In this document: positions 3,117 to 9,162 of the stretch, one piece after another
Layout of the letters: each line of letters opens with the position of its first letter
How positions within the stretch are numbered: the stretch's first letter is position 1
NCBI RefSeq assembly: GCF_050920415.1
Contig: NZ_CP169309.1
Length of the DNA: 64,000 nucleotides
From: Escherichia coli
Lineage (GTDB): Bacteria; Pseudomonadota; Gammaproteobacteria; Enterobacterales; Enterobacteriaceae
Direction: 5' to 3' (one strand)
Notes under the pieces: generated by a model
What the model saw: the letters and a program-made list of their open reading frames with translations, nothing else
Databases searched by the model: none
Told to the model about the DNA's origin: nothing
Translations under genes and position numbers: made by a program

Positions 3117-3650
3117 TTATCTGTCGATTCCCCAGCACGCCAGCGCGCTCTCCTGGTCACGACGGGATATCTGACCGTAACAGTTGTTTGAGCGGATACG
3201 GCAGTCTCTGCCACCGTCCTTAATCCACCAGCGAATCGCTTCACACGCTCCCCTGCGATCGCCTGCATTAATTCGTTTATAAAACGTCGACGGGAAACAC
3301 TTACCGGGGCCAATGTTATACGGGCAGAATGACGCGATCCCCGCTTTCTGGGGTTCAGTCAGTGGCACTTTGATGTTTTTCGCCACCCATGCCAGCGCCT
3401 TATCACGTTCAATGGCGTTAACCCGGTCGCATTTTTCCTTTGACAGCTTCATGCCAGGAATAACAGGCTTACCATCCACCCGGGTGGCTCCACGGCAGAT
3501 GGTCCAGATCCCCGCACCATCACGGTATGCCGTGGTGTGGTTACCTTCCTTTTCATCCAGAAACTGGTCGAGGATTTCAGGCGCAGGCGCACCTGCGGCA
3601 ATCAGCGCCAGAACGGCAGCCGACAGACCGTATTTGATTTTGGTGTTCAT
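3117..3650 (-). CDS. SAR endolysin (phage lysozyme R, GH24)
   Basis: 177 aa; N-terminal signal-anchor-release segment (LSAAVLALIAAGA) then lysozyme motif EGNHTTAYRDGAGIWTICRG. Confidence 0.9.
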   Translation of the reverse strand: MNTKIKYGLSAAVLALIAAGAPAPEILDQFLDEKEGNHTTAYRDGAGIWTICRGATRVDGKPVIPGMKLSKEKCDRVNAIERDKALAWVAKNIKVPLTEPQKAGIASFCPYNIGPGKCFPSTFYKRINAGDRRGACEAIRWWIKDGGRDCRIRSNNCYGQISRRDQESALACWGIDR

Positions 3651-4102: not shown

Positions 4103-4743
4103 TTATATACGTCCTTTAAGATAAGTCAGTCCTGGATGAAACCAGTAAGCAGGCACTTTTTTAAAGGGTGGATTATCAAAATCACGAAGAAGAGCCTCCC
4201 GCACAACTGCATCCTTGTCCGCACCACTGGCCAGCGCTTCAATCTCAGCAGCTACCTGCAGATATCCCATGCAACGACCAATGCGCTTCATTAGTCCCTG
4301 CTTTTTATTGTTCTTCAGGTAATCAATGGCAAATTCAATGAGCGCCTCACTGTGCTGGTGCGATGCTGGTGTTACTTTTCCATCTTCACGGATCGTGATA
4401 TTCCAGTCATCGCTTGTCACAATAAAAGATGGCCGATTCCCCCCCCATGCCTGGTCTTTATCCGGTGCAGACGCAATAAAATAACGTTTATTGCCTTCCT
4501 CTCCGGCACTTTTAACTGTAATGGAGTACTTTTCTGACAATGCGGTCGGTAAAAACTTTTCCTGCAAAATCTTCTCAAAGGTCCTGCGAGCAATTTTGAT
4601 GCAATCATCGTAAAACGCTGCTTCCTGCTCATCGCGGCGTTTTTTTCATCTTCAGAAACCATCAGCACCGACAGTTTTTTATTCAGTTCAGTGATTTCAT
4701 TTTCCAGGCAACTTATGCGCTGATTCATTTCTTCATGGTTCAT
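4103..4743 (-). pseudogene. Hypothetical protein gene between holin and endolysin, interrupted by a frameshift (ORFs 4417-4743 and 4103-4567)
   Basis: N-terminal ORF (MNHEEMNQRISCLENEITELNKKLSVLMVSEDEK) and C-terminal ORF (...QEKFLPTALSEKYSITVKSAGEE...) join into one plausible protein if the A/T run at 4640-4646 had one more base (EDEKKRRDEQEAAFYDDCIKIARRTFEKILQEKF). Confidence 0.5.
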
Positions 4744-4746
4744 CGT

Positions 4747-4962
4747 CTACTCTCCCCGCGCCGCCTTACGCCGGTCCTCTCTGATTTTGAAATACAGGTT
4801 AGTCAGGTACGTCAGCAGGCCAAACAGCAGACTCCCCAGCACACCTATCGCCACCCACTGGGACGGAGAGACTTTGTCCAGCAGCTGCAGTAACCAGTAT
4901 CCCGTCCCCACCGCTGACGTGGTGTATGACACACCTGTTGTGATTTTTTCCATCTGGTACAT
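4747..4962 (-). CDS. Holin (lambdoid EssD-like, dual-start motif)
   Basis: 71 aa [71 protein letters not shown]; matches remembered DLP12 EssD; Met-x-x-Met dual start. Confidence 0.85.
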
Positions 4963-5264
4963 ACCCCGTCTCCCGTTATCCGGAAACTGACAACAATAAA
5001 AAAGCCACCCGTTAATTACTGATGGCTCTGATGCATAAACGTCATCATTCCTGACCGTTATGATTGACAATGGTTATCATTTTTATATAAAAATACTCCC
5101 GATATGTGTTACATATCATTTCTCCACGGGGAATATCCCCACGCCAGCGTCAGACTCGTTTTCCCGTTCTCTTCTGTGCTGGCGTTTTTTTTATTATGAT
5201 GTCGGTACATTTATCTCCAGCACCAGGCTTTCAATCTCAACACCATACGCGGAATTTTTGGGCG

Positions 5265-5295
5265 TAAAAAATCCCCTCCGGTGAGGGGATTTGCT
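5265..5295. terminator. Hairpin terminator downstream of TerB-like operon (possibly bidirectional)
   Basis: CCCCTC-ACCG-GAGGGG stem with T/A runs on both sides. Confidence 0.5.
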
Positions 5296-5523
5296 TATGT
5301 AAACATTTACACTGCTTACCTGCATGGTGCCGGGTGCCTCCCGGTGAATTCAGTATCAGCACCTGAATCCGCAATTATCCCATATACCTACTTGCTGATT
5401 GCCCCTCCGCACAGGGGGATTCACCATGCGAAATTTTTTTAACAAATGCTCAGTCTGACAGGCAACTGTCAACTGGCTGAATTGTGAGACATTTAAAATT
5501 TTCGGGGCGTAACTGATACCCGG

Positions 5524-5688
5524 TTAACTACCTGGCATGTCCTTTTTCACCAAAGGAAAAAGCACCACCACAATACCGACCACCAGCACTCCATCCGCCA
5601 GCACCGACATGATCCTGCTGGTGAAATCCACCATCACCACCAGAAACAGCAGGAGTGCCACAGCGGCCAGACGCAGTTTTACCGTCAC
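5524..5688 (-). CDS. Small hydrophobic membrane protein (54 aa), translationally coupled to TerB-like gene
   Basis: GTG start overlapping the TerB-like TGA stop (GTGA); GGAGAA RBS; product VTVKLRLAAVALLLFLVVMVDFTSRIMSVLADGVLVVGIVVVLFPLVKKDMPGS is almost wholly hydrophobic; below the ORF-track length cut-off. Confidence 0.4.
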   Translation of the reverse strand: MTVKLRLAAVALLLFLVVMVDFTSRIMSVLADGVLVVGIVVVLFPLVKKDMPGS

Positions 5689-6116
5689 AGGTGGTTCTCC
5701 AGTCGCAGGCCAAGAACACCAGCAATCTCTTCCAGAACCTTACGCTCTTCCGGCTCAATTTCACCATCTGCTTCAGCAATGGCCACCGCCACATCCAGCA
5801 CATCTTCCGCTTCACGCGTATCGTGTTTCACATCTTCAATTTCACGCAACGCTGCACGACGACCAATTTTAAAATTGGTGTCAAGCTGACCTGTGATCGT
5901 GGCACTGATGGCATTAATTTCTGACGTAAACGTGGACAACGCTGGCTGGTTACGTAATACCTGTTCGATCTTCGCTTTCTCTGAAGTCTCACATTCACCA
6001 TCTGCATAGGCCACTAGGTAGGCAGCATTAATAACCGCCTGTGCCAGATCGCGTTTCTCAAACTTTTTAATTTCAGTTGCTGCTCTGCGGGTTTTCTTTT
6101 TGAAAATACCAAACAT
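5685..6116 (-). CDS. TerB-like (tellurite-resistance TerB domain) protein
   Basis: 143 aa with paired acidic helices typical of TerB (LAQAVINAAYLVAYADGECETSEKAKIEQVL ... VLDVAVAIAEADGEIEPEERKVLEEIAGVLGL). Confidence 0.7.
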   Translation of the reverse strand: MFGIFKKKTRRAATEIKKFEKRDLAQAVINAAYLVAYADGECETSEKAKIEQVLRNQPALSTFTSEINAISATITGQLDTNFKIGRRAALREIEDVKHDTREAEDVLDVAVAIAEADGEIEPEERKVLEEIAGVLGLRLENHL

Positions 6117-6289
6117 CGTGACTTTTCCTTTTAGTGGGTGAGCCTGCGCCCTGCGGGGACCAGCCCACAGAGAAAGTCACACTGACCATCCCGTAAGCTC
6201 CCCCCTGAAAAGCTCTGTGGTTTTTGATATACGCCGGGCGTGGCGCGGATACAAAAAAGGCCCGCAAAAGCGAGCCAGGAAAATAAGTA

Positions 6290-6366
6290 TGGCGCGTTGT
6301 ACTGGATTCGAACCAGTGACCGATTGCTTAGAAGGCAATTGCTCTGTCCGACTGAGCTAACAACGC
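6290..6366 (-). tRNA. tRNA-Arg (anticodon UCU), phage-encoded
   Basis: Minus strand GCGTTGTTAGCTCAGTCGGACAGAGCAATTGCCTTCTAAGCAATCGGTCACTGGTTCGAATCCAGTACAACGCGCCA folds as a canonical cloverleaf with anticodon loop CTTCTAA. Confidence 0.85.
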
Positions 6367-6379
6367 ATGATGCAGATAA

Positions 6380-6460
6380 TGGACCGCCATCGAGGACTCG
6401 AACCCCGCACCAACAACCCTGTTATCGTGTCGTCTGCTCTTCCTGATGAGCTAATGGCGG
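6380..6460 (-). tRNA. Atypical tRNA-like gene (acceptor, D and T arms present; anticodon arm does not fold canonically; possibly degenerate)
   Basis: Minus strand CCGCCATTAGCTCATCAGGAAGAGCAGACGACACGATAACAGGGTTGTTGGTGCGGGGTTCGAGTCCTCGATGGCGGTCCA: acceptor pairing, GCTC/GAGC D stem, GTTCGAGTC T arm and CCA end, but 27 nt between D and T stems. Confidence 0.45.
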
Positions 6461-6467
6461 TACGTTA

Positions 6468-6542
6468 TGGTGGCCCTGCTGGATTTGAACCAGCGACCTG
6501 GCGATTATGAGTCGCTCACTCTCACCACTGAGCTAAAGGGCC
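6468..6542 (-). tRNA. tRNA with CAU anticodon (resembles E. coli tRNA-Ile2, lysidine type; could be Met type)
   Basis: Minus strand GGCCCTTTAGCTCAGTGGTGAGAGTGAGCGACTCATAATCGCCAGGTCGCTGGTTCAAATCCAGCAGGGCCACCA; anticodon loop CTCATAA; acceptor stem one pair short of canonical. Confidence 0.8.
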
Positions 6543-6582
6543 GGGCGCAGGATAATAACGGTACGTAACTAATTCTGCAATA

Positions 6583-7641
6583 TCATCCGTTCTGACTGAC
6601 TAAATCCTGAACTTCCTTGACCGTCTGCTCAAAACGCTCAGTCTCCAGCTCAACGCCAATTGCACGACGTCCCAGCGCCATCGATGCTTTGACCGTCGAA
6701 CCCGACCCCATGAAAAAATCTGCAACCAGATCTCCCGGACGACTGCTTGCGCTGATTATCTGCTGCAACATTTCTGCCGGTTTTTCGCACGGATGTTTCC
6801 CGGGATAGTACTGCACCGGTTTATGCATCCACACATCGGTGTACGGCACCTGCACAGTCACACCGAAATACCGCCGCAAATTTTTATATTCTCTCAGCAG
6901 TTCCGTATACTGCCGGTTCAGTTCACTGTATGTGCTGACCAGCTGGTGGTGTGGCTGCTCCAGTTCACCGCGCTGATGTTTTTCTGCTGCAACACGCGCA
7001 AACAACGCCTGCAATTTGTTGTAATCAGCTTCGTTCGGTAACTGCCACTGACTGGTACCAAACCAGTGCGAAGCCATGTTTTTCTTTCCGGTGGCTTCCG
7101 CTATCTGTTTTGACGTTATTCCCAGTTCGGCACGAGCATCCCTGAAATACGATATCAGCGGTGCCATTATGTGCTGTTTGAGTTCCCTTTCTTTTGCCGC
7201 ATAGCCGTCACTTTTGCCGCGATATGGCCCCTGGTAATGTTCAGCAAACAGAACGCGCTCTGTGGCAGGAAAATATGCGCGCAGACTTTCTTTATTACAC
7301 CCATTCCAACGTCCGGACGGCTTCGCCCAGATGATATGGTTAAGCACGTTGAAACGTTCACGCATCATGATCTCAATATCAGATGCCAGGCGATGCCCAC
7401 AGAACAGGTAAAGGCTTCCGGCAGGTTTCAACACCCGCCAGAACTGGGCCAGACAGTGGTCCAGCCACTTAAGATAATCTTCGTCCCCTTTCCACTGATT
7501 GTCCCAACCGTTGGGTTTCACCTTGAAGTAAGGCGGATCGGTAACAATCAGGTCAATGGAATCATCAGGCAGGGACTGAATAAAATGCAGGCAATCAGCG
7601 TTGATTAAATCAACACTGTTTATTTTTACAGTATTTTTCAT
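6583..7641 (-). CDS. DNA methyltransferase (N6-adenine or N4-cytosine, DPPY motif), no adjacent restriction enzyme
   Basis: 352 aa with IVTDPPYF catalytic motif and C-terminal AdoMet motif DLVADFFMGSGST. Confidence 0.85.
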   Translation of the reverse strand: MKNTVKINSVDLINADCLHFIQSLPDDSIDLIVTDPPYFKVKPNGWDNQWKGDEDYLKWLDHCLAQFWRVLKPAGSLYLFCGHRLASDIEIMMRERFNVLNHIIWAKPSGRWNGCNKESLRAYFPATERVLFAEHYQGPYRGKSDGYAAKERELKQHIMAPLISYFRDARAELGITSKQIAEATGKKNMASHWFGTSQWQLPNEADYNKLQALFARVAAEKHQRGELEQPHHQLVSTYSELNRQYTELLREYKNLRRYFGVTVQVPYTDVWMHKPVQYYPGKHPCEKPAEMLQQIISASSRPGDLVADFFMGSGSTVKASMALGRRAIGVELETERFEQTVKEVQDLVSQNG

Positions 7642-8264: not shown

Positions 8265-8711
8265 ATGAATAAAATGACTGTATTATTACTTAGCGCAACT
8301 ATCATTTCAGGTTGTACTTCTTCCGTACCATTGATAAAGAAAACTCAATCAGGAAAACCTGAGGGGGTTTATCAAAATACGACAAAAGATAAAGTCAAAG
8401 ATGCCCTTGTGAATTACTGCAATAGTAGAGGGTTGATAATTTACAACGCGGATAACAGCAGTGTTATATGTGGTAAAGAACTGGAAGGCGGGTCTGCTGT
8501 TTTTGGACAAATGTTAATCGGCAATGCCTATTCAACAACCCCGGTATCAAAAGTCAGATTTACTATCGCTCAAGTTAATAACGATACAAAAGTGTGGGCC
8601 GATATGTGGATGGAAACTCAAATGGCAATGGGGCAAGTACAACAAATGGCTATAACAGACAACGCAAGCAAAAACACTATCCAACAACGTCTTGATGAAT
8701 TAAAACCTTAA
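8265..8711 (+). CDS. Lipoprotein of unknown function (moron antisense to late transcription)
   Basis: 148 aa; signal peptide MNKMTVLLLSATIISGC with lipobox Cys; AT-rich codon usage unlike neighbours. Confidence 0.7.
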   Translation: MNKMTVLLLSATIISGCTSSVPLIKKTQSGKPEGVYQNTTKDKVKDALVNYCNSRGLIIYNADNSSVICGKELEGGSAVFGQMLIGNAYSTTPVSKVRFTIAQVNNDTKVWADMWMETQMAMGQVQQMAITDNASKNTIQQRLDELKP

Positions 8712-8796: not shown

Positions 8797-9162
8797 CTAA
8801 CGATCCATCTCTAGCTCAATTTCTAACATCATTAACATGCCATCAACTACACCTTCAGCCTTTTGCAATAAACGCCCAACCCAGCAATCAGAACGCCCAT
8901 GTTTACGGGCAAGCGCCATAAACGTCATACCACCTACATAATAATCCACTAATAAATCGTGCAAATCGCTGTTGTTCTTTTTCAGGCGAGCCATGCACCC
9001 ACAAATGATCATCGCGTCATCGTCACAACATTGCGGGCGGGATTTTACTTTTGAAGGGATTAGTCCTTTAAATCCTGCAGCAATAGACGACCAGGTGACA
9101 TCCTCGTGATTATTTGCCACCCATGCCCCCCAACGTTCAAGAACCATTTGAATATCACGCAT
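8797..9162 (-). CDS. Late antitermination protein Q (QuuD-like)
   Basis: [14 protein letters not shown]...[35 protein letters not shown]...ELEMDR; recognised as DLP12 QuuD-type Q with Cys cluster. Confidence 0.85.

Follow-up and report, generated by a model that had tools for sequence, protein, structure and literature searches.

The DNA analysed here, called the window throughout, is a stretch of 64,000 nt from Escherichia coli (NCBI RefSeq assembly GCF_050920415.1, contig NZ_CP169309.1). Two overlapping genes on its minus strand, at 5524-6116, encode a TerB-fold protein and a hydrophobic microprotein of 54 amino acids (aa). Judged from sequence, the two are near certainly a tciA-tciB pair of the type carried by phage P1. 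The features of the pair, including the open reading frames (ORFs) and the Shine-Dalgarno (SD)-like motifs, are as follows.

5685-6116, minus strand: tciA, a 432-nt ORF with an ATG start, encoding a TerB-fold protein of 143 aa (RefSeq WP_001355126.1)
5524-5688, minus strand: tciB, a 165-nt ORF with a GTG start, encoding the 54-aa DUF3927 membrane microprotein (RefSeq WP_000216624.1)
5685-5688, minus strand: GTGA overlap of the tciA TGA stop and the tciB GTG start, read from the sequence; translational coupling site
5697-5700, minus strand: GGAG, SD-like motif for tciB, within the final tciA codons and 8 nt ahead of the GTG
6126-6129, minus strand: AGGA, SD-like motif for tciA, 9 nt ahead of the ATG

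Because the tciA stop overlaps the tciB start, the two genes are predicted to be translated in a coupled manner from one messenger RNA. An earlier note on this DNA had claimed GTGA coupling between the TerB stop and the microprotein start; the overlap was confirmed at 5685-5688 on the minus strand and is conserved among related loci.

Over this stretch, the window is 100% identical to E. coli MFDS1022581, where RefSeq names the two products 'tellurite resistance TerB family protein' and 'DUF3927 family protein'. In P1 (NC_005856, 70233-70929), tciA, tciB and tciC overlap and lie between transfer RNA (tRNA) genes in the C1-controlled ban operon. TciA of the window is 41% identical to P1 TciA, and TciB is ~41-43% identical to P1 TciB. 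The GenBank record of the lambdoid phage JLK-2012 gives Q, three tRNAs, tciA, tciB, yjhS and holin S, and the P7 record notes similarity to prophages CP-933R and CP-933P of E. coli O157:H7. The idea of an unrecognised cassette was therefore given up, since RefSeq, Pfam, PHROG and the P1 and JLK-2012 records already have both genes; the pair is catalogued and has been known since the phage P1 genome, and its finding here is an independent rediscovery. Using megablast, the 593-nt pair was found at a coverage of at least 80% in 802 of 5,426 complete E. coli genomes, with no more than eight matching places in each, and the exact 54-aa TciB sequence was found on ~998 contigs. E. coli O104:H4 and strains like it gave short matches, which are a pseudogene remnant.

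The TerB-fold protein and its small partner

TciA was assigned to the TerB fold by three matches, which bear out its initial description as TerB-like. Residues 26-138 match Pfam TerB (PF05099, E = 1.8e-12), residues 1-143 of 143 are covered by PHROG 632 'tellurite resistance' (E = 2e-69), and nearly the full length aligns with the solved TerB structure 2JXU (E = 8.9e-8). The AlphaFold2 (AF2) model of TciA has an all-alpha core with a predicted local distance difference test (pLDDT) score of 80-91, and its closest fold matches are the TerB-like entries 2H5N and 2OU3. Two ADGExxxxE motifs are present at residues 38-46 and 116-124; the two acidic DG...E motifs are conserved and line up with those of TerB. 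The protein is bipartite in charge, with a net +7 in residues 1-22 (MFGIFKKKTRRAATEIKKFEKR) and a net -13 in the remainder. The highest amphipathic moment within TciA is also that of residues 1-22, and the conserved basic residues are K7, K8, K17, K18 and R22. TciA is soluble, cytoplasmic and acidic, with the TerB fold and a strongly basic N-terminus.

TciB, a tiny protein of the inner membrane, belongs to the DUF3927 family. It matches Pfam DUF3927 (PF13064, E = 3.4e-16) and PHROG 1470 'TciB-like inhibition of cell division or resistance to colicin' (E = 1.4e-24), and it was aligned with the TciB proteins of P1, P7, D6 and others. Its description as an almost purely hydrophobic microprotein held up, with a mean Kyte-Doolittle hydropathy of 1.58 and two hydrophobic peaks (~residues 7-20 and 33-47) flanking a polar dip at 21-29. 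The family has a conserved central motif, D21-F-T-S-x-x-x-S28-x-x-x-D32-G, and D21, S28 and D32 are the only positions that are at least 90% conserved among 68 members. Their spacing (i, i+7, i+11) puts them on one helix face.

The ratio of nonsynonymous to synonymous substitution rates (dN/dS) of tciB was 0.17-0.51 using the Nei-Gojobori method and eight diverged homologues; in the comparison with JLK-2012, it was 0.24 for tciB and 0.05 for tciA. Because dN/dS is low, the polar residues are conserved family-wide, and the coupling geometry and the SD-like motif are conserved, the tciB frame is under purifying selection and so is a real coding gene. The reading of tciB as a spurious ORF was ruled out by this selection, the conserved polar residues and the conserved coupling. 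TciB is the better conserved of the two proteins in some lineages, being 49% identical to its counterpart in phage Pollock, where TciA is 27% identical. A tblastn search of the phage collection with the 54-aa TciB returned no matches, probably because of the low-complexity filter, and TciB homologues were located instead via TciA and a hidden Markov model (HMM).

Conservation of the pair and alternative partners

A set of 202 loci encoding a TciA relative was compiled from IMG/VR contigs, phage records and a single genome for each species, and was scanned using HMMs from both alignments; single loci are given below by L number. Conservation and co-occurrence across prophages had been set beforehand as the test of the pair, and the pair proved to be conserved, with a DUF3927 ORF (TciB) directly downstream of TciA on the same strand in 194 of the 202 loci. 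Because the same overlap recurs in these related loci, the overlapping arrangement is far beyond chance. Relative to the end of the tciA stop, the tciB start lies at -4 (GTG, GTGA type) in 148 of the paired loci, at -1 (ATG) in 35 and at 0 to +3 in seven. Removal of near-duplicates left 42 pairs, in 38 of which the two genes overlap or abut; in 33 of these 38, GGA or GGAG stands 8-12 nt ahead of the tciB start. Of 23 genomes taken as species representatives, 18 carry the pair, the genera including Franconibacter, Pantoea, Buttiauxella, Serratia, Pectobacterium, Leclercia, Rosenbergiella, Citrobacter and Erwinia. A profile search run exhaustively over 1.84 billion representative proteins gave only 149 DUF3927 clusters. 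In all five of the divergent representatives whose contigs were examined, the gene immediately upstream is a TerB gene (one is cut at the contig end, and one is a weak TerB match). Across these data sets, tciA and tciB are each almost never found without the other.

Candidate fusions of TerB and DUF3927 (Rosetta stone proteins) were rejected, as the three longer candidates (P0136, P0175 and P0193) look like frameshift or chimeric predictions. Some DUF3927 relatives (P0244, P0249 and P0232), the sequences of which look high-GC in origin, bear a C-terminal extension of 30-45 residues resembling a coiled coil; the P0244 gene (L204, 118-411) overlaps, by 1 nt, an upstream TerB gene fragment that matches weakly. 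Among the close E. coli copies (L004-L083), the final third of tciB comes as three mosaic tails, suggesting that a recombination breakpoint lies within the 3' end of tciB.

Another small protein overlaps the TerB stop (by -4 or -8) in Pseudomonas phage AF, in prophages of P. juntendi, P. putida and P. monteilii, and in a Paracoccus metagenome-assembled genome. The loci with this alternative partner are L089 (1632-1853), L105 (3441-3644), L113 (3398-3604), and L210, L211 and L213 (3001-3222). The protein has 64-73 aa in these phages and genomes (64-78 aa across the family), one N-terminal transmembrane (TM) segment, a conserved Cys/Tyr-rich tail and the motif C.(W/F)YGY..ER...VGC.V....G.V.R.E.R; it has no match to a Pfam family and is non-homologous to DUF3927. 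The order is reversed in the metagenomic contig L212, with the alternative small protein ahead of TerB. In Rosenbergiella metrosideri, the protein at an offset of -1 is a divergent one of 55 aa, with two hydrophobic segments. Because the loci lacking DUF3927 mostly hold another coupled small membrane protein, a tiny membrane protein coupled to phage TerB is the general rule. P1, P7 and D6 add TciC, a single-TM protein of 35 aa; no TciC-like ORF follows tciB in the window, where the STnc100 gene comes next.

Placement, expression and neighbouring genes

The features around the pair, including a small RNA (sRNA) gene, are as follows.

6259-6276, minus strand: hairpin and T-run, intrinsic-terminator-like, after tRNA-Arg and upstream of tciA (terminator scan)
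6290-6543, minus strand: tRNA cluster of the prophage, with tRNA-Arg(TCT), a probably degenerate tRNA and a CAT-anticodon tRNA (Ile2/Met) (ARAGORN, RefSeq, Rfam)
5260-5458, minus strand: STnc100 sRNA gene (Rfam RF02076), a neighbour outside the pair
4747-4962, minus strand: class II holin (RefSeq WP_000284518.1, ORF), start of the lysis cassette and boundary of the cargo region
3117-3650, minus strand: lysozyme (ORF list, RefSeq)
6583-7641, minus strand: DNA methylase/methyltransferase (ORF list, RefSeq)
8797-9162, minus strand: Q antiterminator (ORF list, RefSeq)

The gene order on the minus strand is Q, methylase, tRNAs, tciA-tciB (5524-6116), holin and lysozyme. The placement of the pair between the tRNAs and the holin, as first proposed, agrees with the ORFs, ARAGORN and the RefSeq annotation. 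The interval from Q to the holin is likewise a cargo position, since stx sits there in Stx phages and tciA-tciB with yjhS in JLK-2012. The earlier note also placed terminators on both sides of the pair. The upstream one was found (6259-6276), and the downstream one was not, the nearest (~5268-5296, 230 nt off) being the 3' hairpin and U-run of STnc100, with a fold z of -3.0. On the minus strand at ~6380-6460, flanked by tRNA-Arg and the CAT-anticodon tRNA, PGAP alone annotates a 'tRNA-OTHER'; since ARAGORN makes no call there, this tRNA is probably degenerate.

Many enterobacterial phages and prophages share the placement between the late antiterminator and the holin, among them Fostie, Actinobacillus pPE4, Klebsiella 5 LV-2017 and loci L097-L112. 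Pollock and As2, two virulent N4-like phages, carry the pair adjoining dUTPase and replication genes, jumbo Machinavirus phages (Erwinia, Salmonella) carry it in their first 2.5 kb among tRNA genes, P1, P7 and D6 carry it as well, and a P22-like contig has it directly after cro. The designation as lysogenic-conversion cargo is therefore right as to the cargo site between Q and the holin and is not specific, given the N4-like, Machinavirus, P1 ban operon and post-cro placements. Because of the virulent-phage, ban-operon and post-cro placements, and because no promoter was found here, the common denominator of the tciA-tciB placements would be expression in lytic growth. The promoter search was a consensus scan of the minus strand; from the upstream terminator to tciA, it gave no sigma-70-like site (weak or non-sigma-70 promoters escape such a scan). 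A riboswitch or leader in the tciA 5' leader (6105-6262) was considered and dropped, as no unusual structure was seen (z = -0.13). In P1, the tci genes are transcribed in lytic growth (bioRxiv 10.64898/2025.12.28.696737), and TciA peptides were found in a virion preparation (PMC9024508). Knock-down of P1 tciA, tciB or tciC by CRISPR interference (CRISPRi) leaves plaque formation unimpaired, so that the genes are non-essential (PMC10695390).

Phage tRNA genes adjoin the pair in unrelated groups, namely lambdoid phages, P1/P7/D6 and jumbo Machinavirus. The tRNA-adjacent loci are the window (6290-6543), L002, L084-L087, L092, L096, L097, L103, L110, L113 and L114, and a paper on a D6-like plasmid likewise mentions 'the tRNAs region'. 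The pair and the tRNAs may simply pile up in shared cargo hot spots.

STnc100 is full-length (148.7 bits vs a gathering score of 47, Rfam RF02076), starts 66 nt past the tciB stop on the same strand and lies in the 450-nt gap between tciB and the holin. The tciB-STnc100 arrangement was found in six related E. coli-type loci (L003, L004, L020, L040, L078 and L096), in one of which the AgvB sRNA follows on the opposite strand. A candidate sRNA gene on the plus strand (5051-5193) faces tciB and STnc100. Its features are a promoter-like site (5051-5080), an Esr41-like match at 5103-5193 that is weak (34 bits, lower than the gathering score), and a CGCCAGC...GCTGGCG stem ahead of T9. The candidate at 5103-5193 may belong to the PasA/PasC group; PasA/PasC sRNAs are placed beside holin genes and near TerB genes (bioRxiv 10.64898/2026.05.13.724894).

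At 2172-2638 and 4103-4743 on the minus strand, RefSeq gives as frameshifted pseudogenes the lysis protein and a hypothetical gene between the holin and the lysozyme, and the prophage of the window is therefore probably partly decayed. A plus-strand ORF of 148 aa at 8265-8711, between Q and the methylase, has a lipoprotein-like signal sequence (MNKMTVLLLSATIISGC) and may be a further cargo gene.

Proposed function and comparison with known systems

The analysis demonstrates the identity of the pair, its conservation as a coupled two-gene unit, its carriage by temperate and virulent phages, and its dispensability in P1. The best explanation overall, at a probability of about 0.6, is a phage accessory pair consisting of a TerB protein and a membrane partner with a protective role. 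That TciB is the membrane partner of the TerB protein is moderately likely, and the arrangement has three precedents. TerB associates with the membrane and makes up a unit with TerC (PMC12054061; bioRxiv 10.1101/2022.05.11.491447); in DjlA, a TerB-like domain comes after a membrane helix; and TerB domains are present in the defence systems Bunzi, Shango and Dionysus, for which 'membrane surveillance' was proposed (bioRxiv 10.1101/2022.05.11.491447). In this model, TciB, or the unrelated small membrane protein elsewhere, would place or receive the TerB protein on the cytoplasmic side of the inner membrane. Two conserved features, the D21/S28/D32 stripe of TciB and the acidic motifs of TciA, may point to cation or charge sensing. 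The likeliest role of the pair would then be that of a non-essential guard of the inner membrane, which could exclude superinfecting phage DNA or pore-forming colicins or avert premature depolarisation. Protection of the infected cell's inner membrane as the specific role is possible, with the odds somewhat against it. More tentative still is a wider proposal, in which TerB with a micro-membrane-protein (TciAB and its Pseudomonas/Paracoccus counterpart) would be a widespread minimal module of temperate and virulent phages that guards or rewires the infected cell's inner membrane, acting in superinfection exclusion of a novel type or as a counter-measure to membrane-acting defences via the Asp-Ser-Asp stripe.

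Several points weigh against the explanation of a protective TerB-membrane partner pair. A lone TerB gene followed by a terminator-like hairpin, without a small partner, occurs in PMBT3, some Vibrio phages and Marinomonas. In a mirror-tree test of co-evolution, the pairwise identities of TciA and TciB correlated at r = 0.36. Single comparisons are uneven in the same way: P1 and P7 share 83% in TciB and only 31% in TciA, D6 and a Pectobacterium prophage share 85% in TciA and 26% in TciB, and Machinavirus and the window are 70-76% identical in TciA and ~23% in TciB. These values indicate that tciA and tciB alleles have been shuffled between lineages, which speaks against a tightly co-evolved interface; any contact between TciA and TciB must therefore rely on conserved, not lineage-specific, features. 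AF2 (68 sequences) modelled TciB residues 2-49 as one continuous helix (pLDDT 89) and not as the expected hairpin. An AF2 run of a TciA-linker-TciB fusion (30-row paired alignment) gave a disordered linker and no defined complex at a predicted template modelling (pTM) score of 0.56, which, as the run gave no pairwise error output, says nothing either way on a complex. PADLOC returned only a weak 35-residue match of TciA to the candidate model PDC-S48 (E = 0.002) and none for TciB. Judged by position only, the window pair should lie inside the Q-dependent late transcript and so be produced after induction. The P1 label 'tellurite/colicin/cell division' was given by homology only, and in the literature on TciA, TciB, DUF3927 and prophage TerB, no functional assay of TciA or TciB was found; this literature yielded annotations, the CRISPRi non-essentiality call, the proteomics detection and transcript changes. 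The literature searched, which excludes the P1 genome paper and Anantharaman et al. 2012, does not state the near-obligate pairing in both directions, the second, non-homologous micro-membrane partner in Pseudomonas/Paracoccus, the tciA/tciB allele shuffling or the Asp-Ser-Asp stripe of TciB.

Other explanations were weighed using the same evidence, the first of them being that of the earlier note. Expression in the lysogen, with TciA-TciB shielding the host from phages or membrane stress as a lysogenic-conversion defence or superinfection exclusion function, would suit the classic moron position between Q and the holin. It would also suit the Pseudomonas prophages, in which the TerB-partner pairs lie near the cI/cro immunity region, the TerB domains of validated defence systems, and the R478 ter cluster, which gives phage inhibition and colicin resistance (PMC4319500). 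However, the consensus scan from the upstream terminator to tciA gave no sigma-70-like promoter on the minus strand, the strictly virulent Pollock, As2 and Machinavirus carry the pair too, the P1 copy lies within the C1-repressed ban operon, and no real PADLOC match was obtained; this explanation is rather unlikely. A cation or metal module is less likely again. TciB oligomers would bind or conduct cations via the intramembrane D21/S28/D32, and the TerB protein would sense or gate, as a mini TerB-TerC adjusting ion balance or proton-motive force for phage production. In its favour, the stripe is the sole set of residues at least 90% conserved in the 68 TciB relatives and lies on one helix face, the paired acidic DG...E motifs of TciA are conserved and align with TerB, and the ter operon responds to Zn and Mn, with TerB-TerC described as its core unit (PMC12054061); the Pseudomonas partner, however, has a different architecture (single TM, Cys/Tyr-rich tail) without the stripe.

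It is improbable that the pair regulates lysis timing by tuning holin triggering from upstream, e.g., by stabilising the membrane potential. The order Q, tciA-tciB, holin and endolysin is common (Fostie, pPE4, Klebsiella 5 LV-2017 and L097-L112), but P1, P7, D6, the N4-like and jumbo phages and the P22-like contig have the pair in early regions far from lysis genes, and STnc100 and another sRNA-like element intervene before the window holin. An anti-defence decoy, in which the phage TerB protein disturbs TerB surveillance by the host (Shango, Bunzi, Dionysus, ter cluster), is very improbable: it has association alone as its basis, TciA matches no PADLOC model of those systems, and they are not known to be widespread among the enterobacterial hosts in question. 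Virulent and jumbo phages do carry the pair, the TerB-containing Dionysus targets jumbo phages, and in one metagenomic phage contig (L208, L209, 1219-1623) the gene right after tciB has a Tad2-like domain (PF11195) of an anti-defence (anti-Thoeris) family. The least probable explanation is a toxin-antidote pair, with TciB as a membrane toxin neutralised by TciA, or an untranslated spurious microprotein. Small hydrophobic proteins are often toxic, and tciB has a GTG start and a length under the usual cut-offs; however, selection, conserved polar residues, coupling geometry and the SD-like motif exclude a spurious ORF, virulent phages, in which addiction makes little sense, keep the pair, and occasional prophage copies have a truncated tciB with an intact tciA, which is opposite to the expectation for antidote loss.

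The message for the window is that of ordinary annotated prophage cargo and of no new element. The pair is nevertheless common, being found in many complete E. coli genomes, P1-like phage-plasmids, and N4-like and jumbo phages. A functional test would replace a widely propagated misleading annotation, and it could also reveal the membrane role of the TerB domain, relevant to the ter operon, DjlA and three recent defence systems.

Among known systems, Shango (SngA), Bunzi (BnzA) and Dionysus (DinB) have, as in the window pair, TerB domains beside membrane or effector proteins. Their partners (helicase/ATPase, pore-forming toxin and MAEBL protein) are absent at the window pair, and they are host-encoded, whereas tciA-tciB is phage-encoded, virulent phages included. 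The PADLOC models of Shango and Bunzi had no TciA match; Dionysus postdates the PADLOC release and was compared by gene content only. DjlA resembles the proposed model in having a TerB-like domain at the cytoplasmic face of the inner membrane, and TciA has a weak NCBIfam match to it (E = 6e-7), which falls far short of the family cut-off. A single DjlA polypeptide holds the membrane helix, the TerB-like domain and the J domain, whereas the window has a separate microprotein and no J domain.

The TerB of the ter cluster (terZABCDEF; IncHI2 R478, E. coli O157 TAI island; 2JXU) shares fold, size and DG...E motifs with TciA and, like TciA in the proposed model, works with a membrane protein. That partner is the multi-pass TerC in the ter cluster and the 54-aa microprotein in the window, and the ter genes terC, terD/terE and terZ/terA are not among the window neighbours (tRNAs, methylase, sRNA and holin). 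Because the other ter genes are not nearby and the partner is a microprotein and not TerC, tellurite resistance from tciA-tciB alone would not be expected. A lone phage terB was also considered unlikely to confer tellurite resistance (PMC8421299).

The tciA-tciB pair of P1 shares with the window the TerB and DUF3927 families, their order and strand, the stop/start overlap and the adjacency to tRNAs. The P1-type pair is also annotated in JLK-2012, P7, D6, Fostie and Pollock, and in JLK-2012 its placement, from the tRNAs to holin S, is identical to that in the window. The overlap is 1 nt in P1, where tciA ends on the first base of tciB, and GTGA (-4) in the window; the setting is the C1-controlled ban operon in P1 and the Q-dependent late region in the window. 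P1, P7 and D6 have tciC, whereas the window is without it; tciC is optional and does not define the family. The window pair has every defining feature of the P1-type tciA-tciB family.

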